Part shown: in pieces, positions 11,050-51,173 of the stretch
Position numbering within the stretch: the first letter of the stretch is position 1
Layout: each line of letters begins with the position of its first letter
NCBI GenBank assembly: GCA_963706735.1
Contig: CAVPNQ010000116.1
Coordinates: 2,704 to 66,703 of the forward strand
DNA length: 64,000 nucleotides
Source: an uncultured Planctomycetia bacterium
Lineage (GTDB): Bacteria; Planctomycetota; MHYJ01; WSZJ01
Reading direction: 5' to 3'
The notes under the pieces: model-generated
Databases searched by the model: none
Told to the model about the DNA's origin: nothing
Seen by the model: only the letters and a program-made list of their open reading frames with translations
Program-made: the position numbers and the translations under genes

Positions 11050-11065
11050 GGTTGCCTCGCTTCGT

Positions 11066-20760: not shown

Positions 20761-21047
20761 GAGCACCTCCGAAAAAGGGGCCGGAGCCACATCCGGCCTG
20801 GGTGTACGCGGAAGTCGTATCGCCCCGGAATGAGAGCGCTTGAAGAACGCGGCGAACGCCGCCTCGGAAGGGGCGGACGGAGTGCGGCCGTGGTCGCCGG
20901 CCGTGCGGCGGATCTTCAGGAAGTAGATCGGCAGATGCCGCGCCGGAGCTTGAGTGCGGGAAGGCGCCCCAGTGCCTGGCGACGGCGGCAGGAGGGCGAA
21001 GTTCCGATGGTGAGGGTAGAGTGTGAAGGCGACACTAAGGAGTCCGC

Positions 21048-33680: not shown

Positions 33681-33689
33681 AGAGGCCCC

Positions 33690-34955: not shown

Positions 34956-34974
34956 CGGAACAGGAGAAGACACG

Positions 34975-35826
34975 ATGATTTACGGAGCAGGCGTCGACGT
35001 CGGGTCCACGCAGACCAAGGCCGTCATCCTCGGCGACGGGCGCGAGATCGTCGCGCGCGCGCTCGCCATGACCGGCGCCAACGTGACGAAGGCTGCCGAA
35101 CGCACCTTCAACGAGGCCCTCGCCGCCTCCGGGCTCGCGCGCGAACAGGTCGGCTACATCATCGGCACCGGTTACGGCCGCTACAAGGTCACCTTCGGCG
35201 ACTCCCAGGTCACCGAGATCTCCTGCCACGCCCGCGGCGCCCACTTCATGTTCCCCGGCACCCGCACCGTCATCGACATCGGCGGCCAGGACACGAAGGC
35301 CATCCGTGTCGGCACCCAGGGCGAGGTCGTGGACTTCGCCATGAACGACAAGTGCGCCGCCGGCACCGGTCGATTCCTCTCCGCCTCCGCCGAGGTCCTC
35401 GACCTCCCCCTCGACAAAATCGGCGCCCTCTCCCTCGAGGGCAAGGACCCCGTCCGCCTCTCCACCGTCTGCACCGTTTTCGTCGAATCCGACATCATGT
35501 CCTACCTCGCGCAGAACAAGAAAGTCCCCGACATCCTCGCCGGCGTCCACCGCGCCATCGCGGCACGCACCATCTCCCTCCTCCAGCGCATCGGCATGGC
35601 CGCCGAGTACACCATGACCGGCGGCGTCGCCCGCAACGTCGGCATGGTCACCTGTCTCGAGGAAAAGCTGAAAGCCCCCCTCAACGTCAGCTCCGATTCC
35701 CACTTCATGGGCGCCATCGGCGCCGCCCTCTTCGCCCTCGAACGCGCCGAGCTCGCTTCGCGCGGCAAACGCGAGGCCGCCGTCATCGGCGGCTGGGAAG
35801 ACGGCAGCCAGGAGACGACAAAATGA
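34975..35826 (+). CDS. BcrAD/BadFG-type ATPase subunit (activase-like), copy 1
   Basis: [41 protein letters not shown] and TGGVARN are present. Confidence 0.85.
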
Positions 35827-36614
35827 TCAGCGCCGGAATCGACCTGGGAAGCGGCTTCTCGAAGGCCCTCATCTACCGCGACGACGGCAAAGTCCTGGCG
35901 CGGGCGTTCGCGAAGACCCGCGCGGACTTCGACAAGGCCGCGCGCGAAGTCCTCGACGACGCCCTCGGGCAGGCGAAACTCACTCAATCCGACATCGCCT
36001 ACGTCTGCACCACCGGCCTCGGCCGCTACGCCGTCTCCTTCCGCGACATCCAGGTCACCGAAATCACCGCCGCCGCCCGCGGCGCCTGGACGCTCTTCAA
36101 CCAGGCCCAGTTCGTCCTGGACCTCGGCGCGCAGAGCACCCGCGCGATCCGGCTCCGCGACAACGGCAAGGTGAAGGAATTCCAGACGAACGAGAAGTGC
36201 GCCGCCGGCGGCGGAGCGTTCCTCGTCCGGGCCGCCAAGTACCTCGAAGTTCCGCTCGACTCCCTGGGCAAGCTCTCGATGGACGCGAAAGCCTCCCAGG
36301 CGATCTCGAGCGTCTGCGCCGTTCTCGCCGAGACCGAGATCATCAACCACGTTTCCGAGAACATCCCGATCGGCGACATCGCGCGCGGCATGCACGAATC
36401 GATGGCCGACCGCGCGATGGGCCTCCTCAAGAAGGTCGGCCTCAACGGCCCGCTCTGCCTCGTCGGCGGCGTGGCGATCCAGACCGGCTTCGTCGAGGCC
36501 TGCCGCCGGAAGTTCGGCGTGCCCCTCCTCGTCCCGGAGAATTCGCAATACGCCGCGGCGCTGGGCGCTGCCGTGCTGGGGATGCAGCGGGCGAAGAAGA
36601 GGGTGGCTGTTTAG
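35823..36614 (+). CDS. BcrAD/BadFG-type ATPase subunit, copy 2
   Basis: The ATGA start overlaps the previous stop. [35 protein letters not shown] and VGGVAIQ are present. Confidence 0.85.
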
Positions 36615-36814
36615 GTAGGAAGGCTGGCGAAGGCTGGCGAAGGCGTGCGAAGGCTGGCGAAGGCTGGCTAAAGGCTGCCTGAGGCCAAGCTGGGCGGGCC
36701 GTAGCCCCAAAGCGTCCCGACTTGTCTTCCAGTCGACTGACTCCAGCCAAGCTTGCGAGTGTTCCTTCTGCCAGCCTTCGCACGCCTTCGCACGCCTTCG
36801 CCAGCCTTCCCTAC
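36615..36814. repeat. long hairpin whose arms are 10-nt tandem repeats
   Basis: AGGCTGGCGA-type units occur 5 times at 36621-36670. They are mirrored by GCCTTCGCAC-type units at 36774-36808. The element sits between two convergent stop codons. Confidence 0.8.
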
Positions 36815-37845
36815 TTCCCCGGTATGACCACGCTCCTCACGCTCTTCCCCGCTCTCAGCTCGTCAAACGCCTCGTTCACTTTCTCCAGCGGCCGGCGCGA
36901 CGTCACCAGCGGGCCGAGCTTGTACTGGCCGCTTGCGCACATGGCGAGGACGCGCGGGAAGTCGACGGGACGGCAGCCGAGGGAGCCGACGACGTCCTGC
37001 TCCATGAACATGATCTTGCCGGCAAGCATCTCGACCGGCTTGTCCGCGAAGCCGACGATGCAGAGGCGGCCGCCGGCGCGGATCGAGTTGTGGGCGATGG
37101 GAATGACCTTGTGGCTGCCGATGCACTCCATGGCCTTGTCCACCCCGCCGCCAGTCTTCTTCTTGATCGTCTTGGCCACCTCGGGATCCTTCCCGTCGAT
37201 CGTGTCCGCCGCGCCCAGCTGCTTTGCCAGGACCAGCTTGGCCGGATCGAGGTCCACCGCGATGACGTGCGCGCCCGCAATCGCCGCGAACTGCACCGCC
37301 GACAGGCCGACGCCGCCGCAGCCGAAGATCGCCACCGTCTCGCCCGCACGGATCTGCGCCCGGTGCACCACCGCGTGGTACGCCGTCGTCACCGCGTCCG
37401 CCACGATCGAGGCCTCCACCGGGTCGAGGCCGGCGGGAAGCGGAATCAGGTCGCGCGCCCGCACGCACACGTACTCCGCGAACGCCCCGTCAATGTGGTT
37501 CCCCAGCATCTGCATCTTCTCGCAGATGTTCGACCGCCCCGTCCGGCAGAGCGTGCACTCCCCGCACGTCAGCACCGCGGGGACCAGCACCGCCTGCCCG
37601 ATCTTCAGATTCGCAACCCCCGCCCCCAGCGCGTCGATGTGCCCCGCCGGCTCGTGCCCCAGGATGATCGGCGGCTTCTTGAACGTCGGCACCCCATGAT
37701 CCAGGTAGTGCAGGTCCGTATGGCACAGCCCGCACGCCGCCACCTTCACCCGCGCTTCCCCCGCCGCAGGCTCCGGCACCGGCACGTCCTTGATCTCCAG
37801 CCCCTTGGCCCCCGCGAAGTACACCCCCGCCTTCATCGTCGCCAT
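36811..37845 (-). CDS. Zn-dependent alcohol dehydrogenase family (6-hydroxycyclohex-1-ene-1-carbonyl-CoA dehydrogenase/Had-like by context)
   Basis: CGLCHTDLH, GHEPAG, CGECTLCRTG and GCGGVGLSAVQ are present. The start MATMKAG overlaps the upstream stop (TAATG). Confidence 0.8.
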   Translation of the reverse strand: MATMKAGVYFAGAKGLEIKDVPVPEPAAGEARVKVAACGLCHTDLHYLDHGVPTFKKPPIILGHEPAGHIDALGAGVANLKIGQAVLVPAVLTCGECTLCRTGRSNICEKMQMLGNHIDGAFAEYVCVRARDLIPLPAGLDPVEASIVADAVTTAYHAVVHRAQIRAGETVAIFGCGGVGLSAVQFAAIAGAHVIAVDLDPAKLVLAKQLGAADTIDGKDPEVAKTIKKKTGGGVDKAMECIGSHKVIPIAHNSIRAGGRLCIVGFADKPVEMLAGKIMFMEQDVVGSLGCRPVDFPRVLAMCASGQYKLGPLVTSRRPLEKVNEAFDELRAGKSVRSVVIPGK

Positions 37846-38603
37846 TACGCGTCCTCCCACTTCGGTTTCCGTTTCTCCAGGAATGCCTTCAGCCCCTCGG
37901 CGTTGTCCTTCGAGGGAAGCGTTTTTTCGAGGTACGTCCGGCACGCCGCGGCATAGGCCGCGCGGCGGTTCGGGGCGGAAGCGGCTTCCCGGAGGCCCGT
38001 CTTGGCGGCGCCGAGGGCGGCGCCGGAGAAGCCGGCCAGTTTCGCGACCAGCGCTTCGACCTTCGCGTCGAGTTCCGCGTCCGGCGCGGAGTCGTTCACG
38101 AGCCCCCAGGCCGCAGCCTCTTTGCCGCTCAGCGTGCGGCCCGTGTAGACGAGTTCGGCCGCGCGCGCGACGCCGATGCGGGCCGGCAGGTCCACCGCCG
38201 CGGCGGGCGGAAAAACGCCGAGCGTGATCTCCGGGACGCCGAGCTTCGCTTCGTCCGCCGCCAGCACGAGGTCGCACGCCGCGGCGAGTTCCAGACCCGC
38301 GCCGAGGCACGCGCCGCGCGCCACGGCAACGATCGGCACCGGCGCTTCCGCGATGGAATTGAGCAGCCCCTGCAGCGTCTCGAGCAGCCCGGGGCCCTTG
38401 TCCGGGAAGTGTTCGCTGATATCGGCGCCCGCGGAGAGGTGCTTCCCTGCCCCGCGCAGCACGGCCACGCGGTCGGCGGGCTTGAGCGACCGGAATGCGC
38501 CGGTGAGTTCCTGCATCGCCGCGCAGGTCAGGATGTTGAGCGGCGGGTTCGCGAGCGTGACGTGCGCCGCGCCGCCCTTCCGTTCGACGGTGACAAGGCT
38601 CAT
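37845..38603 (-). CDS. enoyl-CoA hydratase/crotonase (dienoyl-CoA hydratase/Dch-like by context)
   Basis: VTLANPPLN, LRGAGKHLSAGADI, ARGACLGAGLELAAACD and GVPEITLGVFP are present. The ATGA start overlaps the SDR stop. Confidence 0.75.
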   Translation of the reverse strand: MSLVTVERKGGAAHVTLANPPLNILTCAAMQELTGAFRSLKPADRVAVLRGAGKHLSAGADISEHFPDKGPGLLETLQGLLNSIAEAPVPIVAVARGACLGAGLELAAACDLVLAADEAKLGVPEITLGVFPPAAAVDLPARIGVARAAELVYTGRTLSGKEAAAWGLVNDSAPDAELDAKVEALVAKLAGFSGAALGAAKTGLREAASAPNRRAAYAAACRTYLEKTLPSKDNAEGLKAFLEKRKPKWEDA

Positions 38604-39319
38604 GCGAGCTGACCTCCATCCACGCGGATGACCTCGCCGGAAATGTGGCGCGAGCCGGGCGCGCACAGGAACGCGACGACTTCGGCGACGTCCTCGGGCG
38701 TGGCGATGCGCCCCAGGGCGGTTTCCTCCGCGAGCTTCTTCTTCGTCTCGGGCGGGACGTCCTTCGTGAGTTGCGTCTCGACCAGCCCGGGCGCGACCGC
38801 GTTCACGTTGATCCCGTCGCGGCCGAGGTCTCGCGCGGCCCCGCGCGTGAGCCCGATCAGCCCTGCCTTCGCGGCCGCGTACGCCGCCGTGCCGCGACGC
38901 GCCCGCAGCGCCAGGGTCGAAGCGATATTCACGATCCGTCCGCCGCCGGCGGCGGTCATGGCGGGGGCGACCTCGCGGATGAAGACGTACGCGCCGGTCA
39001 GGTCCACGCCGATCGTCGCGTCCCAGTGCTCCTGCGACAGGCGCGGAAGCGGCCCGCCCAGGGAGATCCCGGCGCAGTTCACGAGCGCCTTCACCGGCGC
39101 GCCGCGCGCGGTCAGCCACGCCACGGCCTTCTGCGCCGTCGCCGCTTCCCGCACGTCGCCCTTCACCGCCGCGTTTCCGGCCACGTCCACCACGCAGACG
39201 AAGTACCCGTCCCGCTCGAGACACCGCGAGATCGCCGCGCCGATCCCGGCCGCGCCGCCCGTCACGATGGCGCCGCGCGCCGACGATTTTGCCGGCCGCT
39301 TATTTCCCCGTGACGGCAT
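38600..39319 (-). CDS. short-chain dehydrogenase/reductase (FabG-like)
   Basis: TGGAAGIG, NCAG, the YAAAKAG catalytic motif, and a PG..T tail are present. Confidence 0.8.
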   Translation of the reverse strand: MPSRGNKRPAKSSARGAIVTGGAAGIGAAISRCLERDGYFVCVVDVAGNAAVKGDVREAATAQKAVAWLTARGAPVKALVNCAGISLGGPLPRLSQEHWDATIGVDLTGAYVFIREVAPAMTAAGGGRIVNIASTLALRARRGTAAYAAAKAGLIGLTRGAARDLGRDGINVNAVAPGLVETQLTKDVPPETKKKLAEETALGRIATPEDVAEVVAFLCAPGSRHISGEVIRVDGGQLA

Positions 39320-40349
39320 GGCCGCACGCTCCGCAGAACTTGAAGCCGGCCGGCATGCCCTTGGTCCCGCACTTCGGGCAGTCCGCCGACGGCGGCCCGA
39401 AGGGGTACTCGGGCGAATCGTCGTTCGCCCACTTCTCCCGCATCTTCCCCCAGTTGGTCTTGCGCTTCTCGGAGAACGCCCGCATGCCTTCCTGCGGCTC
39501 GGGCGAAGTGAAGTGCAGCGCGAGCCAGTCCTGCGCGTGGCCGACGGTCGCGTGCCAGACCGCTTCCTTGTTCTGGTTCACCTGCACCTTGGTGTAGCGC
39601 AGGCACTCGGGGAACTTGTCCTTGAGGTTGGCGACGTACTCGGCGACTTTCGCGTCGAGCTGCGAGAGGTCGATCGCCCAGCCTTCCTTCTTGTCCGCGG
39701 CCATCTTGACCTGGGTCTCGGTCGGGTTTTCGACGAACTTTCCGTCCTTCGTCACGCTGGGTGCGACCGCGTTGACGAGCCCCCACTCCAGCGCTTTCCG
39801 CGCGGGGATTTTCGGGTTCATCATGAGCATCTCGCGCGCCCGCCGGTCGCCCACGACCATCGGCAGCCACTGCGTCGCGCCGCCGCACGCCACCGACCCG
39901 ACGCTCGTCCCCACCTGCCCGACCCATGCGTGCTCCGCGATGACCGCCAGGTCGCACGCCAGCTGCGACTCGTTCCCGCCGCCGGCCGCCATCCCGTTGA
40001 TCCGCGCGATCACCGGCTTCGGGCAGTGCATGATCGCCTCGAGATACGCCCGGAACAGGCTCATGTACTTCCAGTACTCCCGCGGCTTCTTCACGTAGAT
40101 GTCCGCGTACTCCTTCACGTCCCCGCCGGTGCAGAACGCCTTCTCCCCGGCCCCCGTGTACACCACCGCCGCCACCCGGTCGTCCCACCCGGCATCCTCG
40201 AACGCCCGCGCCAGCTCCCTCAGCGCACCCGTCGAGTACGCGTTGTAGTTCTGCGGCCGGTTGATCGTGATCGTCGCCACCCCGTCCTTCTTCACGTACA
40301 GGATTTCCTTGAACGAGGCGCCGTCGCCGAGCGGTTTGAATTCGTTCAT
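39300..40349 (-). CDS. MenB/Oah-type crotonase (6-oxocyclohex-1-ene-1-carbonyl-CoA hydrolase-like by context) with a C-terminal zinc-ribbon tail
   Basis: ILYVKKDGVATITINRPQNYNAYS, YTGAGEKAFCTGGD and INGMAAGGGNESQLACD are present. The tail is CPKCGTKGMPAGFKFCGACGH. Confidence 0.7.
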   Translation of the reverse strand: MNEFKPLGDGASFKEILYVKKDGVATITINRPQNYNAYSTGALRELARAFEDAGWDDRVAAVVYTGAGEKAFCTGGDVKEYADIYVKKPREYWKYMSLFRAYLEAIMHCPKPVIARINGMAAGGGNESQLACDLAVIAEHAWVGQVGTSVGSVACGGATQWLPMVVGDRRAREMLMMNPKIPARKALEWGLVNAVAPSVTKDGKFVENPTETQVKMAADKKEGWAIDLSQLDAKVAEYVANLKDKFPECLRYTKVQVNQNKEAVWHATVGHAQDWLALHFTSPEPQEGMRAFSEKRKTNWGKMREKWANDDSPEYPFGPPSADCPKCGTKGMPAGFKFCGACGHAVTGK

Positions 40350-40524
40350 CGTATTAACCAATCCCCGAAGCGGTTGGGAAGACAGGAAGAGCCGTTCCCG
40401 GAATGGGCGCAAATTACGCGCCTGTGGGCCCCCTTGCGCAGCCTGCCCCTTCCCGCCCAACCCGCCGTTGAAGTTCACGCACTTCTGGGGCACACTCCGC
40501 ACCTCACCCTTTCCTGGAGCCCCC

Positions 40525-41427
40525 ATGCGATTCCTGCTGGCCGCCACCGCGGCCCTCTTCGCCACCGCGCTTCTCGCGCGCGCCGGCGACAGCGGCTGGA
40601 CGGAGATCGGCGTCGACGACCTCGACATCGCGATCCGTTCCGGCGAAGTCAACGTGTACGACACCAATCCAAAGCGAGTCTGGGAGAAGCGCCGCGTGAC
40701 GAGCGCGACGTGGCTCGACGCGAAGAAGTTCACCGCCGACGACCTTCCGAAGGACAAGGCGGCGATGCTCGCGTTCTACTGCATGAACGAGAACTGACAC
40801 ACGTGCCACCGGGCAGCCGACCGTGCCGTCGGCTTCGGTTACACGAACGTGCGCGTGTTCGCCGTGGGGCTTGAAGGATGGGAAAAGGCCGGCAAATCGA
40901 GCGCGCCCGACGCGGGCGTCCAGAAGGAGGAAGAAGTGCTTGGATTCACGATGAAGGGCATCGACGGCAAGGACGTGAAGCTCGCGGACTACAAGGGCAA
41001 GGTCGTGCTGCTGGTGAACGTGGCCTCGAAGTGCGGGTACACGAAGCAGTACGCGGACCTGGAGGCACAGTACGGCAAGTACAAGGAGAAGGGGTTCGTG
41101 GTGATCGGGATCCCGGCGAACGAATTCGGCGCGCAGGAGCCGGGGACGGACGAGGAGATCAAGAAGTTCTGCGAGACGACGTACTCGGTGACGTTCCCGA
41201 TGCTGTCGAAGGTGGTGGTTAAGGGCGACGGGATCTGCCCGCTGTACAAGTTCCTCACCGAGGAGAAGACGAACCCGGGATTCGCGGGCGAGATCAAGTG
41301 GAACTTCACGAAGTTCCTGGTGAGCCGCGAGGGGAAGGTCGTGAAGCGGATGGACTCGAAGGCCCGCGTGACGGACGAGGATGCGGTGAAGGCGATCGAG
41401 GCGGAGCTGGAGAAGAAGGCGAAGTAG
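40525..41427 (+). CDS. candidate selenoprotein: exported rhodanese-like domain with an in-frame TGA (40795-40797), continuing in frame into glutathione peroxidase. The alternative is a disrupted rhodanese gene.
   Basis: The same reading frame is open on both sides of the TGA. FYCMNEN-TGA-HTCHRAADRAVGFGYTNVRVFAVGLEGWEKAG completes a rhodanese fold. A GC hairpin starts 18 nt after the TGA. Confidence 0.35.
40936..41427 (+). CDS. glutathione peroxidase (Cys type), possible independent start
   Basis: AGGAGG lies 5 nt before the GTG at 40936. KGKVVLLVNVASKCGYTKQY, GFVVIGIPANEFGAQEPG and KWNFTKFLV are present. Confidence 0.8.
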   Translation: MLGFTMKGIDGKDVKLADYKGKVVLLVNVASKCGYTKQYADLEAQYGKYKEKGFVVIGIPANEFGAQEPGTDEEIKKFCETTYSVTFPMLSKVVVKGDGICPLYKFLTEEKTNPGFAGEIKWNFTKFLVSREGKVVKRMDSKARVTDEDAVKAIEAELEKKAK

Positions 41428-41453
41428 GGATTGAGGAGAAACGGACGACTCGA

Positions 41454-41485
41454 GCGGGCCCGGGAATCTCCGGGCCCGCTTTTTT
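41454..41485 (+). terminator. rho-independent terminator
   Basis: GCGGGCCCGG-GAATCT-CCGGGCCCGC is followed by TTTTTT. Confidence 0.8.
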
Positions 41486-41746
41486 GTCCTGATTGGGTCA
41501 CCGAAATGTAACGAAGGGATTCCCCGGTAACAGGATTCGGGGCATTTCCAGAACGGAACAACGCCACAAAGCCTTTGCGCTGATTTACTTATACAAAGAT
41601 TAACCTTCTTCATCTTTCGGCCCACGGCTTGCAACCTCCGGTTTTCCGTCCGCGTGTCCCGTCTGCACAAACCCCGCGACGACCCCGACCGGAGGCAATC
41701 CGGGAAGGTTCGGCGCCACCGATGTTTTTATTTCGGAGCCTCGACC

Positions 41747-44700
41747 ATGCGCATTTCCCGCCGCTTCAACAATCGCGGCTTTGTGATCCTCGTCGCGCTC
41801 GGCGTCCTGGGCATCCTCGGCCTCCTCGCCGCGGCCTTCGCCACGATGTCGCGCGTCGAGAAGTCGGCGTCCTCTTCCTACGTGGACAAGGTCCGCGCCC
41901 GCCTCCTCGCCGAATCCGGCGTCGAGCGCGCCCTGGCCTCGATCCGCGCCCGCACGCAGATCCAGGCGTGGGACGACGCGCGCAACGACTGGTACTACCG
42001 CGAAATGCTGAACGCGCCGGTCGGGACGCTCACCTACTCCCCCGCCGCGATCGCCGCGCTGGGCGGATACACGCCGAAGCGCGCCTACGGCACGCCGCCG
42101 CGGCGTCTCGAGCAGGTCTGCGACGAAGCGATACTCAGCAGCGCGGTGACCGGGCTCTCCTTCGTGGACGCCTCCCGCCCCTGGATGAGCGGCGGCATGC
42201 CGGGCACCTACGAGCTCGACGGCGACACCTACGCCGTCAAGGCCCTGGACTGCGCTTCCATGCTGTTCGTCAATGACCAGAACCCCCAGATCAAGCGCCT
42301 CCTCAACAACCTCGGCTCGATCATGAGCCTCGACGCCGGTCTCCCGACGCCGTTCAAGCTGGGCGACGAGATCGTCGCGGTCGCCAAGCTGCGGAACCGG
42401 CCGTTCGCGCACAAGGGCGAGGTCCTCGACCTCGTGTTCGTCCCGAAGCTCGGCGCCGTCGAGGCCCGCGCGCGATTCGACAAGGTCCGCGACTTCATCA
42501 CCTGCCACGGATGGGTGGACTACACGACGATGCATTTCGGCCCCAAGCCGGTCGGATTCGCCGCGTCCGCGCCTCCCACCCCGGCCGACATCATCGATCG
42601 CGGCGGCGTCGTGACGCAATTCGTCCCCGCCTCGGGCTCCGCCACCACGGCCGCCAAGTTCGGCGGCAACAACCAGTGGAAAGAGCCGCGCGCGCCGATC
42701 AACGTCAACACGGCGAGCCGCGAAGTGCTGGTCGCGATGCTCTGGGGGCTGACGGCTAAGTTCGTGGACTACGATCACGCGAGCGGCCACCTGGTGACGC
42801 GCGACATCACGATCTCCCAGGCCAACGCCGAGGCCGCGGCCGATCACATCATCGCCGCCCGGTTCTCCTTCGGCACGCCCGCCGGCGCCTGGTCCTTCAA
42901 CGACTGGATGCACTTCCGCTCCGAGGTCATCGACACGATCCCCGGCCTCGACCGCTTCCAGCGCGCCCTGATCCACGCCAACGGCAACCCGAACACGGAC
43001 ATCCGCAAGCTCAACCCGGACCTGCTTCTGGTGGACCCGAATCCGCTGACCGAATCGGTGGACCTCGTGCGCCTCGACAAGTCCGACATCACGCAGAAAT
43101 CCACCGAGTGGACGTTCTCGTCGATGGGCCTGTTCGAGATCGAGTCCCTCGGCCGCGTCACGGCGGGCGGGAAGCTCCTCGCGGAAGAGAAAGTCACGAC
43201 GGTCGTGAAAGTCTTCGACGCGCTGCGCTTCACGACGCAGGAACAGTTCGAGAAGGACCGGAGCTGGACGAACGACGACCCGGCGAAGACGGAGGGCAAC
43301 CTCTACTCGGACGGATTTCCCCCGGTCGTCTCGATGCCGGAGTACCCGTACAACAACCCGAAGCTGATTCCCAGCCCGCGGTACAAGAGCGCTTCCGGCG
43401 ACCTGGCCTGGGCGTCCGACTATGACGGCTACCTCACGCTGAACGGCCCCGCCAACGTCATGGCCGGCCAGACGCCGACCGACTTCAACACGTCCGCCGC
43501 CAAAATGTGCCGCAAGCCGCACGGGGGCTGGCCCGCCAACTGCCCGTCGTGGGCCGTGCTTCCCAACGAGTCCGGCATCGACTGCAAGGTCAGCGGCGTC
43601 TGGGGATTCAACCTCGGCAAGCTCGGGCCCAACCAGTCCCACGCCAACGTCCCTTCCAATACCCAGAAACACGTCCTCCCCGCTCCCACCAACCCGGAGT
43701 ACACCTACGCGTCCCCGAACTGCGAGGGCGTCAAGGTCACCAACTCCCCCGCCAACTCGCTGTCCTCCGATACCGAATACTCCTCGGCCTGGGGCATCGC
43801 TCCCAAGCGCCCCTACCAGATCCAGCCCGGCGGCGCCCTCAACGCCATCGCTACGGGCTTCTTCGAGGACGGCGCCGATATCCAGCCCTTCGGCCTCTAC
43901 GTGAACTACCTCAAGCGCCGCCGGTTCCACACGATCTGGGGCGATGAACTCCCCACCGCTCGCTTCACCGTCGAGTTCGCCTACAAGCCCGAGGTCGATC
44001 ACTGGGAATGGGGGAAGGGTCTCGCGCAGACTCCCGCGGCCAAGGCGGCCAACGCCGGGCCGGTCTCGAAGATGCACCTCTGGGGGCTGGGCGCCGCGAC
44101 GCACGGGACGAACTACGAGCAGTGGGTTTACGTCCAGGGATCGCGCATCTTCTACGACCTGTACTACGGCGGGCAGCACTACGTGATGTACGCCGACCAC
44201 GACTTCCGGGCGCACACCTGGCACCACATCGAGTTCAGCGTGATCGATGGCCAGTCGAAAACGCTCGCGGACGGGTCCACCGTCTTCGTGCCGCCCAACG
44301 CCATGCTCTTCGTGGACGGCAAGCCCGCTTCCGGCATCGTCGGCGCCGGTGAGGACGTGAACACCAAGCTCGGCAAGGCCGTCTTCGACGTCAAGGCGAT
44401 GGCCCTCCCCGTCCCGTTCATCGGCGTCTACCCGAACAACGACTGGGGCGTCGGCCCGCGCATGGAAATCGGAAGCAAGCTGCAGAACACGATGGACGGA
44501 TTCGGCATGAGCCAGCCCTCCACCATCGGCACCATCGATAACCTCGTCATCCACCACTGGCGCAGCCACGAGTCCGCCTTCACCCCCCGGAACCGCTTCC
44601 ACAGCATGTCCTACTACGACGGGACGACGTTCAAGAGCGGGAAGGGCTACAAGGGAGAGAAGGCGGGGGTCTACAAGAAGCGGCTGGCGGCGGTGGAGGC

Positions 44701-45064
44701 GGCTGTGGCAGCGGGGGGCGAGGTGACGATCGGGACGGTGACGTGCACGCATTACCACCCGTTCCACGTTCACCTGTACGGGCACGACGGTTCGGCGCCG
44801 ACGACGTCGTTCGGGCACATCACGCCGTCGATCCGGACGAAGACGGGCGGAAGCTACCTGGACTCTTACTACTACGACGGGTGTGCGGGGCTGCCGGTGA
44901 AGACGGCGGTGAAGGCGGGGACGGAGGTGTACTACATGGGGTGGTTCGAGGTGGCGGCGATGGTGCCGGTGACGATGTCGCCGATCCTCGACGACCTGAC
45001 GGTGACGTACTTCGCGGAGCCGAAGGTGCTGTACCGGCACAGTTCGGTGGAAGTGCGCCGGTAA
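41747..45064 (+). CDS. giant GspK-like pseudopilin-type protein with a LamG-like domain (1105 aa), paralog 1
   Basis: N-terminus RGFVILVALGVLGILGLLAAAFATMSRVE. GspK-type motif PINVNTASREVLVAMLWGL. LamG-like motifs HTWHHIEFS...NAMLFVDG...IDNLVIHHW. His-rich C-terminus CTHYHPFHVHLYGHDG. Confidence 0.85.
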   Translation: MRISRRFNNRGFVILVALGVLGILGLLAAAFATMSRVEKSASSSYVDKVRARLLAESGVERALASIRARTQIQAWDDARNDWYYREMLNAPVGTLTYSPAAIAALGGYTPKRAYGTPPRRLEQVCDEAILSSAVTGLSFVDASRPWMSGGMPGTYELDGDTYAVKALDCASMLFVNDQNPQIKRLLNNLGSIMSLDAGLPTPFKLGDEIVAVAKLRNRPFAHKGEVLDLVFVPKLGAVEARARFDKVRDFITCHGWVDYTTMHFGPKPVGFAASAPPTPADIIDRGGVVTQFVPASGSATTAAKFGGNNQWKEPRAPINVNTASREVLVAMLWGLTAKFVDYDHASGHLVTRDITISQANAEAAADHIIAARFSFGTPAGAWSFNDWMHFRSEVIDTIPGLDRFQRALIHANGNPNTDIRKLNPDLLLVDPNPLTESVDLVRLDKSDITQKSTEWTFSSMGLFEIESLGRVTAGGKLLAEEKVTTVVKVFDALRFTTQEQFEKDRSWTNDDPAKTEGNLYSDGFPPVVSMPEYPYNNPKLIPSPRYKSASGDLAWASDYDGYLTLNGPANVMAGQTPTDFNTSAAKMCRKPHGGWPANCPSWAVLPNESGIDCKVSGVWGFNLGKLGPNQSHANVPSNTQKHVLPAPTNPEYTYASPNCEGVKVTNSPANSLSSDTEYSSAWGIAPKRPYQIQPGGALNAIATGFFEDGADIQPFGLYVNYLKRRRFHTIWGDELPTARFTVEFAYKPEVDHWEWGKGLAQTPAAKAANAGPVSKMHLWGLGAATHGTNYEQWVYVQGSRIFYDLYYGGQHYVMYADHDFRAHTWHHIEFSVIDGQSKTLADGSTVFVPPNAMLFVDGKPASGIVGAGEDVNTKLGKAVFDVKAMALPVPFIGVYPNNDWGVGPRMEIGSKLQNTMDGFGMSQPSTIGTIDNLVIHHWRSHESAFTPRNRFHSMSYYDGTTFKSGKGYKGEKAGVYKKRLAAVEAAVAAGGEVTIGTVTCTHYHPFHVHLYGHDGSAPTTSFGHITPSIRTKTGGSYLDSYYYDGCAGLPVKTAVKAGTEVYYMGWFEVAAMVPVTMSPILDDLTVTYFAEPKVLYRHSSVEVRR

Positions 45065-45083
45065 AGGAGCGAGGAAAAGCGGG

Positions 45084-45114
45084 TGGCCCGGCCTCTCGGC
45101 CGGGCCATTTTTTT
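45084..45114 (+). terminator. rho-independent terminator
   Basis: TGGCCCGGCC-TCTC-GGCCGGGCCA is followed by TTTTTTT. Confidence 0.8.
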
Positions 45115-45559
45115 GGTGAAACGGGGGTCCCGGGAGGCCACGGATTTGGGCTATTTTTCCCAATCCAGTGGTTCGAGGTCATGTTTTTCGATGGGGTAAC
45201 AGGTCACCCGGGAGTAACGAAATCCGGCGCTTCCTCAAAATGAAAGAATGTCATTTACGTTGCAACTACATTCCTATACATCACTTACAAACATTAAGAA
45301 AACTAACAATGGCCCCTGTTTTGCATTAGTTCGCCTCCATACATCCTGTCCCTATCCTCCTGATGGAGAAGCGCTGCAGGTAGTACCGAGGGCCTAGACC
45401 TCCCGCCAACTCGGAACCCCGCCCGAACGTGACCTGGCCAAAAACCCGTCACCTTCCGCTGGCTTCCGAAGCGAGACGTTCCGGTCATCCTGATCCCACC
45501 GGTGGGAATCAGGTCTACCCCTCAGACTGCAACCCACTTCTTTCTTTCAAGGAGGTCAC

Positions 45560-48500
45560 GTGCTCGATCGAAGCCTTGAACGCCAGCGTGGATTCGTCCT
45601 GCTGGTTGCTCTCGGCGTCCTCGGTGTTCTGGGCCTGCTCGCAGCGACGTTCGCGACCCTGTCGCGCGTCGAACGGGCGGTCTCGAACAGCTATGTAGAC
45701 AAGGTCCGCGCAAAGATGCTCGCCCAGTCGGGAGCGGAGCGTGCGATCGCGTCCATCCGGGGTCGCGCCATGGTCCAGGCCTGGGACGATGCCAGGAATG
45801 ACTGGTACTACCGCGAAATGCTGAACGCGGAAGTCGGCGGACTGGTCTACCCCGCCGCCGTCAAAGCCAGCATCTGGAAGTACACGCCCACCAGGTCCTA
45901 CGGCATGCCGCCGCGGTCCCTGGAAGCGTCGCTGGACGACGGCGTCGTGAACGGCGTCCCGAACGGCATCTCTTTCCCCCAGGCTGCCACGCCGTCCGCC
46001 AACGAGCCCTTCAGCGGACAGTTCCCCGGCACCTACGAGAGCCGCGGCGACGTGTACGCCCTCAAGGTCCTCGACTGCGCGTCGATGATCAACGTCAACG
46101 ACGGCAGCTCGCAGGTCGTCCGCATGCTGAACAACCTCGGTTCGATCCTCAAGTGCGCCGACGGCACGCTGGTCAGCGCCGGCGGGTTCAACCTCGGCAC
46201 CAAGATCCAGACCAAGGCGATCAGCCGCGGAAAGCCCTTCAACAACAAGTCCGAGATCCTCTCCGAGGTCTTCATCGCCGACCCGCTGTTCGCGGGGAAC
46301 GCCGCCGCGGCGCGCAGGCGCTTCGACGCGGTCCGCGATTTCATCACGTGCCATGGCTGGGTGGACGGCATGACGATGAAGTTCAACAACACGTGGACCG
46401 GCGCGACCGACTACACGGGCGGGAGCTACGCTTCGGCCTCGACCGGCGGCAGTGGCGGCGGCGGTGGTGGTGGCGGCGGCGGAACGGGCGACCCGACGGA
46501 CCCGAAGGATCCGATCGGCGGGACTGACCCGATCGATTACAAGATGGCCCCGGGTCTTCCCGAGTTCGCGACCAGCCCTCTCTACTCGATCCAGTCGATC
46601 ACCCCCGGCGTTTACGCTTCGATCCCGTCCACGCGCGTCCTGGCGGCCCCCGGGCCCCAGAAGGCGAAGGACGTGAAGAAGGGCGGCGCTTTCCGTCAGT
46701 TCGTCACGGGGCAGGGCACGAATGCGGCCCTTGGCGGCGAGACGGCGGCGGGCAAGTTCGGCGGCACCTACTACCAGGGTGAGCCCCGGACGCCGATCAA
46801 CATCAACACCTGCACGAAGGAAGTCCTCGTCGCGACGCTGATGGACCTGGAAGCCAGCTTCTGGGACTACGCAGTCGTGTCCGAGTCGGCCGTTCCGAAG
46901 GAGTACACGTCGTCGCTCGGCCTCGTCACCGTGAAAATCACGAAGGCGGAGGCGGAGAGCGTCGCGGACTTCCTCATCAGCGGCCGCTTCACGAACGGCT
47001 CCCCCTCGGGCGCCTGGTCCTACAACGACTGGATGCACTTCGAGGACGACGTCCTCCTGGCCATCCCGGGGATCACGCGCTTCCAGAAGGCCCTCATCAA
47101 GGCCAACGCGAACCCGAACTCGAACATCAAGAAGATGTGCCCGGACCTGATCCTTGTGACCTCGAATCCGTCGATCAACCCTGACGAGCTGGTCCGCATG
47201 GACAAGAGCGACATCAAGGTGAACTCGACGGACTGGACGTTCAGCTCGAACGGGATTTTCGAGATCGAGAGCATCGGCCGCGTGTACAACGCCGGGAAGA
47301 TCATGGCGGAAGAGAAGCTGGAGACGGTGGTGAAGGTGTTCGACCAGGTGGTGTACACGACGCAGGAGCAGCTCGAGGACGACCGGGTCTGGACGACCGA
47401 GGACTCGAAGGAAGGCGACCTGCTGGCGGGCGGGTATCCGCCGGTGATTTCGATGCCCGAGTACGTGTACAACTCCGCGGCGAGCGCGAGCCACTATCGC
47501 AGCCAGACGGGGGACGAGACGTGGTGCGCGGACTACGAGGGGTACCTGATCCTCAACGGTCCGGCGAACGTCCAGGCCGGACAGACCCCCGGCCCCGCGA
47601 AGGACGGTGCGGCCGGGTATGGTGAAGGCAACGTGGCGGAGGCCTGCTGGGGTTCGGATCCGTACAACCTGGCGAAGGTCAGGCCGAATACCGGCGTCCA
47701 TTCCTCGGCGCTGGTCGGCGACGGTCCGCCGGCCGGCCTGAAAGCATGCGCCGTGTCGTTCGTCGCAGGATTCAACATGGGCAGCCTGTACCCGAACCAG
47801 AGCCACCGGAACAAGTATCACGATCCGGCCCAGGGCGGGACCGGCACGCCGAGGCATCCCGAGTACTCCTACTCGATGCCCCACTGCTTCGCTGACGGCG
47901 CTTACATGTCCGCTTCGCCGGCGAATTCATTCACGCAGGACACGAACTACAGCAGCTCGGGCTACTCGCCCAAGGAGCCTTACCAGATCAAGCCCACGAT
48001 GAGTGGCGCCAACTTCTGGGACGGCGGCTGCGACCTCCAGAACTTCGGCGTCTACATGAACCAGACCCGCCGCAACCGCTTCCATACGTACTGGGCGGAC
48101 GAGGTTCCGGCGCCGAACTGCACGCTCGAAATGACGGTCAAGCCGGAAATCGACCTGTGGACGTGGGCCCCGAAGAGCAAGATGCACACGGTGGACAACG
48201 GATGGGCGACCTACACGATCATGCCCTGCAAGCGGCAGTTCCTGTTCGACTGGGGAACCGGCGGGACGAAGGGCATGAACTACACGATCCGCGGATATGC
48301 CGATCTCTCCCGGGTCTACCTCGAGTTCTACCACCACAGCACGGGCGCCTTCTACGTGCTCTGGCACGACAACGTCTGGAAACCCCACACCTGGCACCAC
48401 GTGGAGTTCTCCTGGTCCAGCGCCCAGGAAATCACGAACTCGGACGGCACCAAGACGGTCGTCCCGCCGAACGCCATGCTCTTCGTGGACGGTTCGACGA

Positions 48501-49252
48501 ACTCGGCCGGAACGTCGAGCATGGCCTTCACGCTCGGCACGCCTGAAGACGTCAACACCAAGCTCGGTCTCAACATCTACGGCGGCGCGGCCATCGTGCT
48601 TCCGGAGAACGTCTGCCCGGTCAATCCGAACAACGACACCGGCACGGGCCCGCGCCTCGACATCGGGGGCATCCTGGCCGACGACGGCTCGTTCGGAATG
48701 AGCTCGCCCCGCTGGCACGGCGTCATCGACAACATCGTGATGCACCACTGGCGCAGCCACAGCGCTTCCTTCACCCCCCGCAACCGCTACCACTCGATGA
48801 CGTACTACGACGGTTCGACCTGGAAGAGCGGCGAGGGGTACAAGAAGGAGAAGGCGGGCGTGTACAAGAAGCGCCTGACGTACCTGGAGGGTCTGGCCGC
48901 GACGAAGGACATCACGATCGGCACGGTGGGCTGCACGCACTACCACCCGTTCCACGTGCACCTGTACGGGCACGACGGAAGCGCGCCGACGACGTCCTTC
49001 GGGCACATCACGCCGAGCCTCCGGATCAAGACCGGCGGGTCGTACATCGACTCGTACTACTACGACGGTTGCGTCGGCGTGCCGGTGAAGACGCAGCTGA
49101 AGGCCGGGTCGGAAGCGTACTACCTGGGCTGGTTCGAGATTGCGGCGCTGGTGCCGGTGACGATGTCGCCGATCCTGTGCGACATCCGCATCACGTACTT
49201 TGAGGAGCCGCAGACCCTGTACCGCCTGTCGAGCTCGGAAGCCAAGAAGTAA
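45560..49252 (+). CDS. giant GspK-like pseudopilin-type protein with a LamG-like domain (1230 aa), paralog 2
   Basis: GGAGG lies 4 nt before the GTG at 45560. It is collinear with paralog 1 (RGFVLLVALGVLGVLGLLAATFATLSRVE, ININTCTKEVLVATLMDL, HTWHHVEFS, LFVDG, IDNIVMHHW, CTHYHPFHVHLYGHDG). Confidence 0.85.
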   Translation: MLDRSLERQRGFVLLVALGVLGVLGLLAATFATLSRVERAVSNSYVDKVRAKMLAQSGAERAIASIRGRAMVQAWDDARNDWYYREMLNAEVGGLVYPAAVKASIWKYTPTRSYGMPPRSLEASLDDGVVNGVPNGISFPQAATPSANEPFSGQFPGTYESRGDVYALKVLDCASMINVNDGSSQVVRMLNNLGSILKCADGTLVSAGGFNLGTKIQTKAISRGKPFNNKSEILSEVFIADPLFAGNAAAARRRFDAVRDFITCHGWVDGMTMKFNNTWTGATDYTGGSYASASTGGSGGGGGGGGGGTGDPTDPKDPIGGTDPIDYKMAPGLPEFATSPLYSIQSITPGVYASIPSTRVLAAPGPQKAKDVKKGGAFRQFVTGQGTNAALGGETAAGKFGGTYYQGEPRTPININTCTKEVLVATLMDLEASFWDYAVVSESAVPKEYTSSLGLVTVKITKAEAESVADFLISGRFTNGSPSGAWSYNDWMHFEDDVLLAIPGITRFQKALIKANANPNSNIKKMCPDLILVTSNPSINPDELVRMDKSDIKVNSTDWTFSSNGIFEIESIGRVYNAGKIMAEEKLETVVKVFDQVVYTTQEQLEDDRVWTTEDSKEGDLLAGGYPPVISMPEYVYNSAASASHYRSQTGDETWCADYEGYLILNGPANVQAGQTPGPAKDGAAGYGEGNVAEACWGSDPYNLAKVRPNTGVHSSALVGDGPPAGLKACAVSFVAGFNMGSLYPNQSHRNKYHDPAQGGTGTPRHPEYSYSMPHCFADGAYMSASPANSFTQDTNYSSSGYSPKEPYQIKPTMSGANFWDGGCDLQNFGVYMNQTRRNRFHTYWADEVPAPNCTLEMTVKPEIDLWTWAPKSKMHTVDNGWATYTIMPCKRQFLFDWGTGGTKGMNYTIRGYADLSRVYLEFYHHSTGAFYVLWHDNVWKPHTWHHVEFSWSSAQEITNSDGTKTVVPPNAMLFVDGSTNSAGTSSMAFTLGTPEDVNTKLGLNIYGGAAIVLPENVCPVNPNNDTGTGPRLDIGGILADDGSFGMSSPRWHGVIDNIVMHHWRSHSASFTPRNRYHSMTYYDGSTWKSGEGYKKEKAGVYKKRLTYLEGLAATKDITIGTVGCTHYHPFHVHLYGHDGSAPTTSFGHITPSLRIKTGGSYIDSYYYDGCVGVPVKTQLKAGSEAYYLGWFEIAALVPVTMSPILCDIRITYFEEPQTLYRLSSSEAKK

Positions 49253-49268: not shown

Positions 49269-49306
49269 GGCCCCGGGGAGATGCGAATCTCCCCGGGGCT
49301 TTTTTG
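49269..49306 (+). terminator. rho-independent terminator
   Basis: GCCCCGGGGAGAT-GCGA-ATCTCCCCGGGGC is followed by TTTTTT. Confidence 0.8.
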
Positions 49307-49615: not shown

Positions 49616-50836
49616 CTACCAGAGGTTCGTCAGGGGGCGCTCGCCGAACTCGCGCTCGAGGGCGCGCGGGATGACCATGATCTTCAGGACCTCGTTGGCC
49701 CCTTCGCCGATGCGCCCCAGGAGGGCGTCGCGCAGGTGCCGCTCGATCCGCGAGTCGTGGACGTAGCCGTAGCCGCCCGAGAGCTCGATGGCGCGCTCGG
49801 CGACGTGCACCGAGGACTCCGTCGCCGCCACCTTGGCGATCGCCGCCTTCGCCGCGATGTCCGCGCCGCGCGTCTTCCACCACGCCGCCTGGTAGGTCAG
49901 CGTCCGCCCGGCATTGATGCCGATCTGCATCTCCGACATCTCGCGCCGCGTGTTGTCGAGGTCGATCAGCCGCTTCCCGAACAGCTCGCGCTCGTGGGCG
50001 TACTTCACGAACTTCTCGTAGGCGCCCTGCGCGATCCCGGTCGCCCAGGCGCCGATCGTGACGCGGCCGCCGTTGAGCATGTGCATCGCGTAGTTGAAGC
50101 CCTTGCCTTCCTCGCCGACGAGCTGGTCCTTGGGCACGCGATAGTCCGCGAAGACGAGCTCCGCCGTGTTCGACCCGCGCACGCCCATCTTCCCCTCGAT
50201 CTTGTGCTGCTCGAAAGTCCCCTTCCAGCCCTTCTCCACCGCAAACGCGCTCACCTTGCCGTCGGCGCCCTTGGCCATGATGAAGAACACGTCGGCGGTC
50301 ATGGCGTTGGTGATCCAGTACTTGCCGCCGTTGAGGATGTAGTCGCCGGTCGCGTTGTCGCGCGTCCACGAGCACTTGAGGGTGCGCGCGTCCGACCCCG
50401 AAGTCGTCTCCGTGAGGCCGAAGCAGCCCGTGAGGCGCCCGTGGGCGAGTTTCTCGACGTACTTGTCCTTGAGGCGGTCGCTGGCGAAGCGATAGAGGCC
50501 GTCGGTCGCGGTGCCGTGGATGGCGACGGCGAGGGCGAAGCCGGCGTCGGCCTTCGCGAGCGTCTCGATCCCGGCGGCGAGCCAGGAGAAGCAGGCGTTC
50601 ATGCCGTCGTACTTTTCGGAATACGGGAGCGCCATGAACCCGAGCTCGCCGAGCGCGCGGAAATTGTCCGCGGCGAAGGACTCCTCGGCGTCGTTGCGGG
50701 CCGCGCGCGGCGCCACTTTCTCGGCGGCGAAGTTCGCCAGGGGCCCCGAGAGGAATTCCAGCAGGTCCTTCCACGACGGGCTGGCGTGGTGAAGCACCTC
50801 GAGGGTGTCCTGCTGGTCGCGGGTGAAGAAGGGCAT
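49616..50836 (-). CDS. acyl-CoA dehydrogenase family protein
   Basis: GLTETTSGSDA, NGGKYWITN, MGVRGSNTAEL, GGYGY and GEGANEV are present. The start MPFFTRD is preceded by AAGGAA. Confidence 0.85.
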   Translation of the reverse strand: MPFFTRDQQDTLEVLHHASPSWKDLLEFLSGPLANFAAEKVAPRAARNDAEESFAADNFRALGELGFMALPYSEKYDGMNACFSWLAAGIETLAKADAGFALAVAIHGTATDGLYRFASDRLKDKYVEKLAHGRLTGCFGLTETTSGSDARTLKCSWTRDNATGDYILNGGKYWITNAMTADVFFIMAKGADGKVSAFAVEKGWKGTFEQHKIEGKMGVRGSNTAELVFADYRVPKDQLVGEEGKGFNYAMHMLNGGRVTIGAWATGIAQGAYEKFVKYAHERELFGKRLIDLDNTRREMSEMQIGINAGRTLTYQAAWWKTRGADIAAKAAIAKVAATESSVHVAERAIELSGGYGYVHDSRIERHLRDALLGRIGEGANEVLKIMVIPRALEREFGERPLTNLW

Positions 50837-50936
50837 GGTGGATTCCTTGGAGTTCTGAATGCTGTTGGTGGCGCCGTGGCGGACCACGATACCCCAATAG
50901 TGCGGAATCCGGCCATCGGGGAATACAATCCGGGGC

Positions 50937-51173
50937 ATGAAATACCTGAAGACTTCCCAGTTCGTGCCGATGAAGGGCGAGGCGTGGATGTACTACGAGT
51001 GCGAGGACGACCTGACGGTCAACCGGGTCGTGACGCACATCCCCATGACCGGGGAATCGACGCTGACGCCCGACCCCGTGATCCGGGTGCTGTTCCGCCC
51101 GGAGATGATGCTGCCGTCGGCCCAGGCGGAGTTCGACAAGTACTGGGCGATCGGGGAAAAGAAGCCGAAGTAG
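50937..51173 (+). CDS. small hypothetical protein (78 aa)
   Basis: The ORF is divergent from the acyl-CoA dehydrogenase gene. Its GC3-rich codon pattern is consistent with coding. No motif was recognised. Confidence 0.5.
   Translation: MKYLKTSQFVPMKGEAWMYYECEDDLTVNRVVTHIPMTGESTLTPDPVIRVLFRPEMMLPSAQAEFDKYWAIGEKKPK

Follow-up and report, generated by a model that had tools for sequence, protein, structure and literature searches.

Two tandem giant proteins of an uncultured planctomycete as probable K-class minor pilins with lectin-like extensions

Two adjacent genes, here called A and B, are located in a 64-kb stretch of DNA from an uncultured Planctomycetia bacterium (contig CAVPNQ010000116.1), and this whole stretch is referred to below as the window. 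Judged from their sequences, the two products belong to an unnamed family of ~900-1250-amino-acid (aa) proteins of the GspK/PilK class that is distributed among Planctomycetota and Candidatus Omnitrophota. On the basis of an entirely computational body of evidence, we estimate a probability of roughly 0.6 that A and B are K-class minor pilins of modular build and serve as alternative, lectin-like tips of a filament whose machinery is encoded elsewhere. An earlier sequence-only reading of the window had proposed a family of oversized tip pseudopilin or adhesin-like proteins. This proposal gains support from relatives that are encoded in the K position of GspH-I-J-K cassettes and from a complete type IV filament cluster that includes a family member.

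Each protein is composed of a GspK-like module followed by a ~600-residue extension, which carries a LamG/concanavalin A (ConA)-like sandwich and a C-terminal beta-rich domain. We propose that a prepilin peptidase would cleave these proteins after Gly11, and that the machinery of a type IV filament, encoded at some other place in the genome, would extract them from the inner membrane. They would then sit at the filament tip beside GspH/I/J-like minor pilins, where the LamG and C-terminal domains may bind an external ligand, most likely a glycan and possibly in a metal-dependent manner. Having several giant K paralogs in one genome, as with A and B here, would give the cell a choice of tips that differ in specificity.

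A profile of the C-terminal half, searched against 1.84 billion representatives, recovered 19 clusters at E <= 1e-30, 45 at E <= 1e-10, and 234 at E <= 1e-3. The 150 profile matches listed are mostly proteins of 900-1250 aa that are matched in their C-terminal halves, and the proteins in this size range align end to end with A. Every named family member is annotated as a “hypothetical protein.” A scan of one genome per GTDB species yielded 189 relatives, and the best 80 of these come nearly all from metagenome-assembled genomes (MAGs) of Planctomycetota (groundwater, lakes, Brocadiia), with several from Candidatus Omnitrophota. Multiple copies per genome are present, including at least seven loci in JACPWG01 and five in JAIOPR01, and tandem giant paralogs are a common, recurring arrangement among the relatives.

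The gene context of these relatives is the decisive evidence for the pilin reading. One Omnitrophota locus (L055) carries, in order, genes for GspE-like, PilT-like, GspE-like, and GspF-like proteins, a T2SSG pseudopilin, a GspH-like pilin, two additional pilin-like proteins, and a family member of 908 aa that matches A over aa 1-510 (E = 2e-29). On the 3' side of the family member are genes for a HEAT protein, a PilM-PilN fusion, a TPR-STN protein, and two secretins. The GspH-like pilin of this locus is a weak match (GspH, 18.4 bits, below the cut-off), and the N_methyl motifs of the two further pilin-like genes are sub-threshold. Four other loci, from Omnitrophota (L054 and L058) and Planctomycetia (L070 and L089), encode a GspH-like pilin of 151-164 aa, a pilin of 123 aa, and a pilin of ~232 aa, followed by a giant protein of 955-964 aa with a PA14 domain. 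The same four loci include one or two more giants (1027-1041 aa) flanked by secreted proteins of ~355-400 aa, and all of these giants match the family hidden Markov model (HMM) and end in TPV[LI]EDV[TS].TY.P...LY..E. Because relatives are located directly after H/I/J-like pilin genes, we conclude that the family occupies the K slot of minor-pilin cassettes. A prepilin gene also lies near one other relative (P0038), and a secretin gene near another (P0039).

In the PA14-containing giants (L054 2425-5319 and its equivalents in L058, L070, and L089), the PA14 domain (33.4 bits) replaces the helix-hairpin-helix (HhH) and LamG regions. Since the N-terminal core is retained together with the C-terminal tail, these proteins are modular in their middle. 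A swap of the middle (LamG versus PA14) leaves three parts in place, namely alpha1 with the first strands, the hairpin on the C-terminal side of the pilin module, and the protein's extreme C-terminus.

Homology of the N-terminal ~500 (A) or ~600 (B) residues to GspK is solid at the family level, as judged from profile comparisons and structure models. The predicted GspK-like module of A (41747..43261, aa 1-505; this and all other features of A and B given below are on the + strand) adopts a pilin fold into which a helical HhH domain is inserted, and that of B (45560..47386, aa 1-609) includes a low-complexity insertion at aa ~275-375. The N-terminus of A (41747..41956, aa 1-70) consists of a short basic leader, Gly11 as the putative prepilin-peptidase site, a hydrophobic alpha1N segment, and a 63-residue alpha1 helix. 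The pseudopilin-type hydrophobic start noticed in the sequence-only reading is indeed present in both proteins as RGFV[IL]LVALGVLG..SRVE at aa 10-38, and AlphaFold2 (AF2) models residues 8-70 of A as an unbroken helix, as expected for pilin alpha1. The N-terminus fits the K-class pattern [RK]-G-[FVSA]-[VA]-L-[LI]-[VIL], with A reading R10-G11-F-V-I-L-V. Gly(-1) is kept in 68 of 79 aligned family members, and at +5 the residue is V, I, or L but never Glu. Neither A nor B is matched by N_methyl (IPR012902 / PF07963) at E <= 1, as expected because K-class pilins lack Glu5, and neither is matched by PilX_N in Pfam.

When the family N-terminal profile was compared with an alignment of 33 canonical GspK sequences, hhalign reported a match at 98.4% (E = 9e-15, 177 columns) between family positions 1-253 and GspK positions 1-208. 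The INVNTA/second-HhH region gave a separate local match (75%, E = 2.5e-5). This comparison required the alignment of 33 sequences, as hhalign against the single E. coli GspK sequence recovered only the N-terminal 22 residues at 15%. Among PDB sequences, the sole match to the 505-aa N-terminal profile at E <= 0.01 is XcpX/GspK (5vtm_X, E = 0.0027). It runs through two collinear motifs, and in it the HhH motif of A, PINVNTASREVLVAML, aligns to APLNVNTASVPVLAAM of XcpX.

This GspK-type HhH motif is located at 42695..42742 in A (aa 317-332) and at 46793..46840 in B (aa 412-427, PININTCTKEVLVATL), and both copies fit PIN[VI]NT..[RK]EVLVA.L. The motif had been described as lying ~330 residues into both proteins, which is correct for A. 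In B it is shifted by a ~100-aa low-complexity insertion, and the pattern as first typed (“P.IN”) was one position too long. The insertion is Pro/Asp/Thr-rich, is shared by B and its orthologs (window 46373-46690, B aa ~272-377), contains a G10 run at 46454..46483, and falls in a loop (aa 264-310 of A) for which the AF2 model of A predicts disorder.

The AF2 model of A aa 1-505 has a mean predicted local distance difference test score (pLDDT) of 79.8 and a predicted template modeling (TM) score of 0.81. Its top three Foldseek matches in the PDB are all GspK/XcpX (E = 0.008-0.08, probability <=0.97), and the ranks below them have E > 2.5. Curated models respond among the relatives: T2SSK matches 13 of 34 close-to-mid and 16 of 45 distant relatives, PilX_N matches 9 of 34 and 13 of 45, and NF037980 (GspK) matches 30 of the 45 distant relatives with a best E value of 1.7e-11. 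For A itself, Pfam T2SSK aligns to aa 318-336 below its cut-off (E = 0.02; 15.7 bits versus a gathering threshold of 24.2). NF037980 is likewise sub-threshold for A and B (19.3 and 18.3 bits, E = 6e-4 and 1.4e-3, cut-off 130), and the sub-threshold NCBIfam matches to GspK and Verru_Chthon_A span A aa 10-72. Because A and B alone lack a significant Pfam match, support for the GspK and LamG assignments sits at the level of family and fold. The HMM check by which the earlier reading could have been refuted gave no significant match for the two proteins alone, and matches to T2SSK and Laminin_G_3 in their relatives.

The failure of A and B singly to reach Pfam and NCBIfam thresholds is what would be expected if each began with a normal Sec signal peptide followed by an unrelated fold, with a chance likeness to GspK and LamG. 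We regard this explanation as effectively refuted. The hhalign match to GspK reaches 98.4%, the PDB and Foldseek matches are specific to GspK, the alpha1 helix is continuous over 63 residues, and the relatives show K-slot synteny. Structure prediction for the N-terminal region, which had been proposed as a check, returned GspK/XcpX rather than a plain signal peptide on another fold.

A and B share several features with GspK/XcpX (PDB 3CI0 and 5VTM; PF03934/PF21687; NF037980). These include an [RK]-G-hydrophobic N-terminus without Glu5 and with a long alpha1, a pilin sheet split by a helical domain with D..s.iNvN and INVNTA HhH motifs, and the placement of relatives right after GspH/I/J-like genes. 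However, at 1105 and 1230 aa, A and B are 3-4 times larger than GspK, in agreement with the original remark that they are more than three times the canonical size (300-350 aa), and they carry the ~600-aa C-terminal extension with LamG and beta domains. They also score below HMM cut-offs and are monocistronic, duplicated, and far from gsp or pil genes in the window. The closest solved homologs are GspK/XcpX of type II secretion systems (T2SSs), and the L055 locus has a T2SSG-type major pseudopilin along with GspH. These findings would fit a true T2SS GspK that caps a periplasmic pseudopilus and uses its LamG and C-terminal domains to recognize or push secreted substrates. We consider such a role improbable, as L055 also has genes characteristic of type IV pili (T4P), for a PilT-like ATPase and for PilM/PilN, and the 600-residue extension and multiple paralogs seem better suited to a displayed adhesin than to the tip of a piston.

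The extension of A includes a poorly modeled linker and a LamG/ConA-like beta-sandwich (43409..44581, aa ~555-945), and the corresponding region of B (47528..48769, aa ~657-1070) was placed by alignment to A and by motif positions. AF2 predicts a jelly-roll beta-sandwich of the LamG/ConA type in A, with confidence for the core alone (aa ~789-939, block pLDDT 77-92). Foldseek with the C-terminal model returned 27 PDB matches at E <= 1e-3, and those listed are mainly sandwiches of the laminin-G, agrin, neurexin, pentraxin, CBM40, and neurotoxin-HCN types, such as 1qu0 (probability 1.0, target-normalized TM-score 0.53) and 3sh4 (0.52). Laminin_G_3 (PF13385) is detected at E <= 0.01 in 7 of 34 and 26 of 45 relatives. 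It gives no match on A or B at E <= 1, and the C-terminal-half profile found only a non-significant PAPP-A2 LamG-like match among PDB sequences. The concanavalin/LamG-like block had originally been recognized from the motifs HTWHH[IV]EFS, NAMLFVDG, and IDN[LI]V[IM]HHWRSH, which are found in both proteins, and the confident core and the matches in relatives bear this out.

The C-terminal beta-rich domain (in A, 44654..45061, aa ~970-1105) is common to the whole wider family, and its ~135 residues can be aligned over 34 members of this wider group. The strands that AF2 places in this domain of A are of moderate confidence only. Within the domain is a His-rich loop of 29 residues, CTHYHPFHVHLYGHDGSAPTTSFGHITPS, which is identical in A (44744..44830, aa 1000-1028) and B (48932..49018, aa 1125-1153). 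The near-identity of a His-rich C-terminal module in the two proteins, as first reported, therefore stands for the loop, but the loop lies inside the wider domain and is not an autonomous module. In the clade that includes A and B (down to ~35% identity), the loop follows the pattern C-T-H-x-H-P-x-H-x-H-x2-G-H-D-G...F-G-H. H1007, H1009, H1013, and H1024 are invariant in 21 of 21 clade sequences, and C1000, H1002, and H1004 are each present in 19 of the 21. More distant family members lack the loop but keep the rest of the domain.

Over a 50-aa stretch that includes the His loop, A and B are 90% identical in amino acid sequence, compared with ~50% elsewhere. Gene conversion was considered as the cause and rejected, since the synonymous-codon identity of this stretch (0.71) is like that of the rest of the gene. 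The absence of any elevation instead points to purifying selection on the loop. A metal site at this location is a reasonable guess. Pfam, PDB, and sequence-cluster profile searches gave no match that accounts for the loop and no known relative of the His-rich domain.

With its four invariant His residues and further conserved Cys, His, and Asp, the 29-residue loop, set in a stretch 90% identical between the paralogs, could also be viewed as part of a catalytic site. A and B might then be enzymes, such as a glucanase or metallo-hydrolase built from the ConA-like sandwich and the His cluster, that are delivered or anchored by a pilin module, and modular pilins with peptidase modules are known (PMC8179133). 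This seems quite unlikely to us because no catalytic family was matched in Pfam, NCBIfam, or the PDB, most of the wider family lacks the His loop yet keeps the rest of the domain, and AF2 models the loop as disordered.

The final ~25 residues are conserved in both phyla. The extreme C-terminal motif of A (44978..45037, aa 1078-1097, SPILDDLTVTYFAEPKVLYR) is kept across Planctomycetota and Omnitrophota, that of B (49166..49225, aa 1203-1222, SPILCDIRITYFEEPQTLYR) is conserved as well, and the MSPIL sequence occurs in both proteins. Large tip proteins of ~600-1200 aa, namely CpaL, MshQ, and PilY1, have recently been tied to the I-J-K initiation complex (Ellison et al. 2026, PMC13533445). In CpaL, a single chain combines a pilin-like domain at the N-terminus with a middle region that is dispensable and a beta-strand at the extreme C-terminus that is essential and completes the pilin sheet in cis (PMC13533445). 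The A/B family shows a parallel division, with conservation of the N-terminal core and of the last ~25 residues around a variable middle. We view its members as functionally analogous to CpaL/TadG of Tad pili and to PilY1/PilC and MshQ, which act with PilK-family minor pilins. Sequence similarity to these proteins was not found, although no search aimed at it was made, and neither vWA nor a PilY1 beta-propeller is detected in the A/B family. Pfam finds no PilY1/PilC beta-propeller in A, B, or 79 relatives, and Foldseek with the C-terminal model gives lectin-type sandwiches.

By analogy with CpaL, we hypothesize that cis beta-strand completion may also occur in the A/B family. An extended form of this idea, which we view as possible but less likely than not, is that the family members are single-chain “PilK plus PilY1” tip adhesins whose final ~25 residues would fold back, past a variable lectin-bearing middle of ~600 residues, and complete the K-pilin beta-sheet in cis. 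Bacteria of the Planctomycetes-Verrucomicrobia-Chlamydiae (PVC) group would then maintain a repertoire of interchangeable giant K subunits (variants with LamG, PA14, or a His4 metal site) around one H-I-J set. If so, cis completion would permit assembly and hold the adhesin in place at the tip, and the interchangeable K giants, often with a secreted companion of ~360-400 aa, would change what type IV fibers grab. When modeled without the N-terminal module, the last ~25 residues have pLDDT < 50, and hhalign with short profiles gave no significant match between the extreme C-terminus and the last GspK strands. Alternatively, the last strand might come from the invariant “TTQ.QFE” junction, as hinted at by an alignment that is weak and not significant.

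Several findings weigh against the assignment of A and B as minor pilins. A Pfam scan of all likely genes in the 64 kb detected no GspD/E/F/G, PilB/C/Q, or prepilin peptidase, in agreement with the initial remark that secretion and pilus genes are missing nearby. The called genes of nine further loci of relatives (L001-L004 and L006-L010) include no filament machinery cluster, only a lone prepilin-type gene in L002 and a borderline secretin gene in L007. Pfam T2SSK does not match B, and A and B singly fall below every curated HMM cut-off in Pfam and NCBIfam. The target-normalized TM-scores of the Foldseek matches to GspK are modest (<=0.47), and the AF2 model of A aa 500-1105 (606 residues) is poor overall (pLDDT 58.8).

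In an alternative explanation, the GspK-derived N-terminus has been exapted as an uncleaved inner-membrane anchor. A and B would then be stand-alone lectin-like or receptor proteins of the periplasm or envelope that act independently of any filament. The two genes are monocistronic among metabolic genes with no pilin or machinery genes nearby, family genes are orphans in most of the Planctomycetota loci inspected, and a single MAG can hold copies at seven or more loci. Despite these points, we consider this explanation unlikely, though less so than a T2SS piston tip. Purifying selection has conserved Gly(-1) and the K-type pilin core as a whole in both phyla, and relatives occupy the K slot of H-I-J-K cassettes. 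Moreover, K-type giants are dispersed in the lineage of the window, and gene dispersal is usual for Planctomycetota pathways. We therefore retain the K-class minor pilin as the preferred assignment.

Two kinds of small genes recur beside family members. In MAGs close to the window organism, a third, B-like paralog is flanked by genes for a 245-aa secretin-domain lipoprotein and a 378-aa companion. The mini-secretin lipoprotein (~245 aa; Pfam Secretin, 41.9 bits, gathering threshold 27.5) is unusually small, and its gene lies ~350 nt upstream of this paralog (L020 7810-8544, L023 8903-9643, L019 4693-5430, and L006 16901-17509). The companion is a Sec-signal protein of ~355-410 aa without a Pfam match, encoded directly 3' or 5' of many family members. 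It often carries an N-terminal LPDGA.V motif and occurs in at least two sub-types (L003 13806-14990 and 19090-20307, L008 13698-14912, L007 13643-14878, L009 3363-4544, L054 6389-7600 and 10729-11796, L020 8768-9904, and L023 13914-15038). No counterpart of the ~400-aa companion, the mini-secretin, or the H/I/J pilins of relatives was found in the window.

As first described, A and B are adjacent collinear open reading frames (ORFs) of 1105 and 1230 aa, and the ORF listing agrees with these coordinates (A, 41747..45064; B, 45560..49252, with a GTG start). The G+C content of the window is ~66%, and third-position GC is strongly biased in both genes (0.92 in A and 0.90 in B). The open frame of A extends from 41654 to 45064, and its 1105 aa are counted from the ATG at 41747. 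This is the likely start because a GGAG site (41735..41738) is located 8 nt upstream and because A orthologs (79-84% identity, 1103-1105 aa) start at the same Met. The two proteins are paralogs (BLASTP, E = 0), with 57% of residues identical across the N-terminal 267 aa and 50% across the C-terminal 890 aa. B-type relatives in other MAGs (P0010-P0017) are 47-51% identical to A and have the same N-terminal module as B, longer by ~100 residues.

Each gene has its own start signals, terminator, and long leader, and all of the elements claimed in this regard were located. The Shine-Dalgarno-like GGAG of A was read from the sequence, and B is preceded by AGGAGG at 45550..45555, 4 nt 5' of its GTG. 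An intrinsic terminator 3' of A (45081..45110) has a 13-bp stem followed by a T-run. The terminator 3' of B (49270..49305) has a 12-bp stem (GCCCCGGGGAGA-TGCGAA-TCTCCCCGGGGC) followed by T6, and it was identified by reading the sequence because the terminator scan did not list it. The glutathione-peroxidase gene upstream of A ends with its own terminator at 41452-41481. With a hairpin and T-run for each gene and a terminator upstream, A and B look monocistronic, with leaders of ~260 nt (A) and ~440 nt (B).

Both leaders contain AT-rich patches (41582-41631 and 45211-45310; 28-42% GC versus 66% for the genome), and within both patches is the sequence CTTA(TA)CAAA[GC]ATTAA, which may be a common promoter or regulatory element of A and B. 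TACAAA[GC]ATTAA is the sole stretch common to the two leaders, and this similarity is not above that of shuffled controls. Rfam detected no riboswitch or small RNA in either leader or in the whole window, where the only match is a tRNA-Ala at 13247. Antisense ORFs overlap A (41600-45163, - strand, 1187 aa) and B (45515-47884, - strand, 789 aa). Because their translations are rich in Arg, Gly, and Asp, we consider them to be the usual antisense artefacts of high-GC DNA and not genes.

Upstream of A are genes for a 2-hydroxyacyl-CoA dehydratase with a BcrAD-type activator, a zinc-dependent alcohol dehydrogenase (ADH), enoyl-CoA hydratases (ECHs), a short-chain dehydrogenase/reductase (SDR), and a glutathione peroxidase (GSHPx), and downstream of B are genes for an acyl-CoA dehydrogenase, MutS2, and an H+-PPase. 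The metabolic cluster that flanks the pair (32523-40757 and 49616-50938), which includes two ECHs and the acyl-CoA dehydrogenase, suggests an anaerobic amino-acid or acyl-CoA fermentation pathway. The order ADH-ECH-SDR-ECH-GSHPx-giant-giant recurs in a related MAG (L010) with 58-64% identity, indicating that the tandem pair is conserved at this locus.

Within the window, we found no further prepilin-type N-terminus and no third paralog. A tblastn search of the window with E. coli Gsp proteins and the Omnitrophota pilus cluster gave only a weak TPR-STN match at 2-1471. Three tandem small secreted proteins are encoded on the - strand at this end (2-568, 782-1471, and 1539-2303), two of which have STN/GspD-N0-like domains at or below the Pfam cut-off (E = 1e-5 to 1e-6). 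They resemble the STN part of the L055 TPR-STN protein (tblastn, E = 9e-9 and 1e-7) and could belong to a split secretin system extending past the left edge of the window. Elsewhere, three stretches (10603-12838, - strand; 14846-17925, + strand; 18112-21093, - strand) encode two FHA-domain proteins, one of them with vWA, along with an extracytoplasmic function (ECF) sigma factor, a zf-HC2-vWA-YfbK_C anti-sigma-like protein, and a 993-aa ORF without a Pfam match.

Giant pilin-like tip proteins and modular pilins are an already established concept. Known modular pilins include Streptococcus sanguinis PilB (vWA) and PilC (ConA-like lectin), and PF13385/LamG-type lectin modules are among the commonest pilin grafts, for which tip exposure has been proposed (Raynaud et al. 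2021, PMC8179133). GspK itself was noted as modular in that survey (PMC8179133). A and B likewise combine a pilin module with a grafted ligand-binding module. However, the surveyed pilins have a small classical module with N_methyl (IPR012902), whereas A and B have a K-class carrier and a multi-domain graft. This absence of the N_methyl signature explains how the family escaped the modular-pilin survey (PMC8179133).

Two other protein groups share N-terminal features with the family. Verru_Chthon cassette protein A (TIGR02600), a protein of ~1300 aa, matches A (E = 3e-7) and B (E = 7e-5) over its N-terminal ~60 residues, and 23 of the 45 distant relatives show the same N-terminal match. It is nevertheless another family, from Verrucomicrobia, and the match covers model positions 3-62 of 1296 with 28.6 bits versus a cut-off of 332. 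Verru_Chthon A shares its cassette with three prepilin-like proteins (B, C, and D), an arrangement like the H-I-J-giant cassettes of L054, L058, L070, and L089, and we regard the A/B family as analogous to it. The K-class PilX proteins of type IVa pili (PilX_N, PF14341) share the helix pattern RG.aL...L...A.aGiE.A, to which the PilX_N matches in relatives correspond, but classical PilX is only ~200 aa and A and B lack a PilX_N match.

What is new here is the family itself and its predicted architecture, with a GspK core, a LamG or PA14 middle, and a conserved C-terminal domain. Also new are the tandem and dispersed multiplication of paralogs in Planctomycetota and Omnitrophota, the companion genes, and the His4 loop. 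Together these proteins would constitute a family of giant K-class minor pilins that has so far lacked annotation, and they would extend the modular-pilin idea to a GspK scaffold that signature-based surveys have missed. The family also lends itself naturally to testing the beta-strand-addition rule that was recently proposed for the assembly of tip complexes. Our findings suggest that PVC bacteria diversify their filament tips by multiplying K subunits, and genes of the A/B type are candidates for the ligand-binding tips of planctomycetal fibers. Glycan (dextran)-binding fibers have been seen on Planctomycetes (PMC5394234), and it is tempting to speculate that a repertoire of K giants could explain them.

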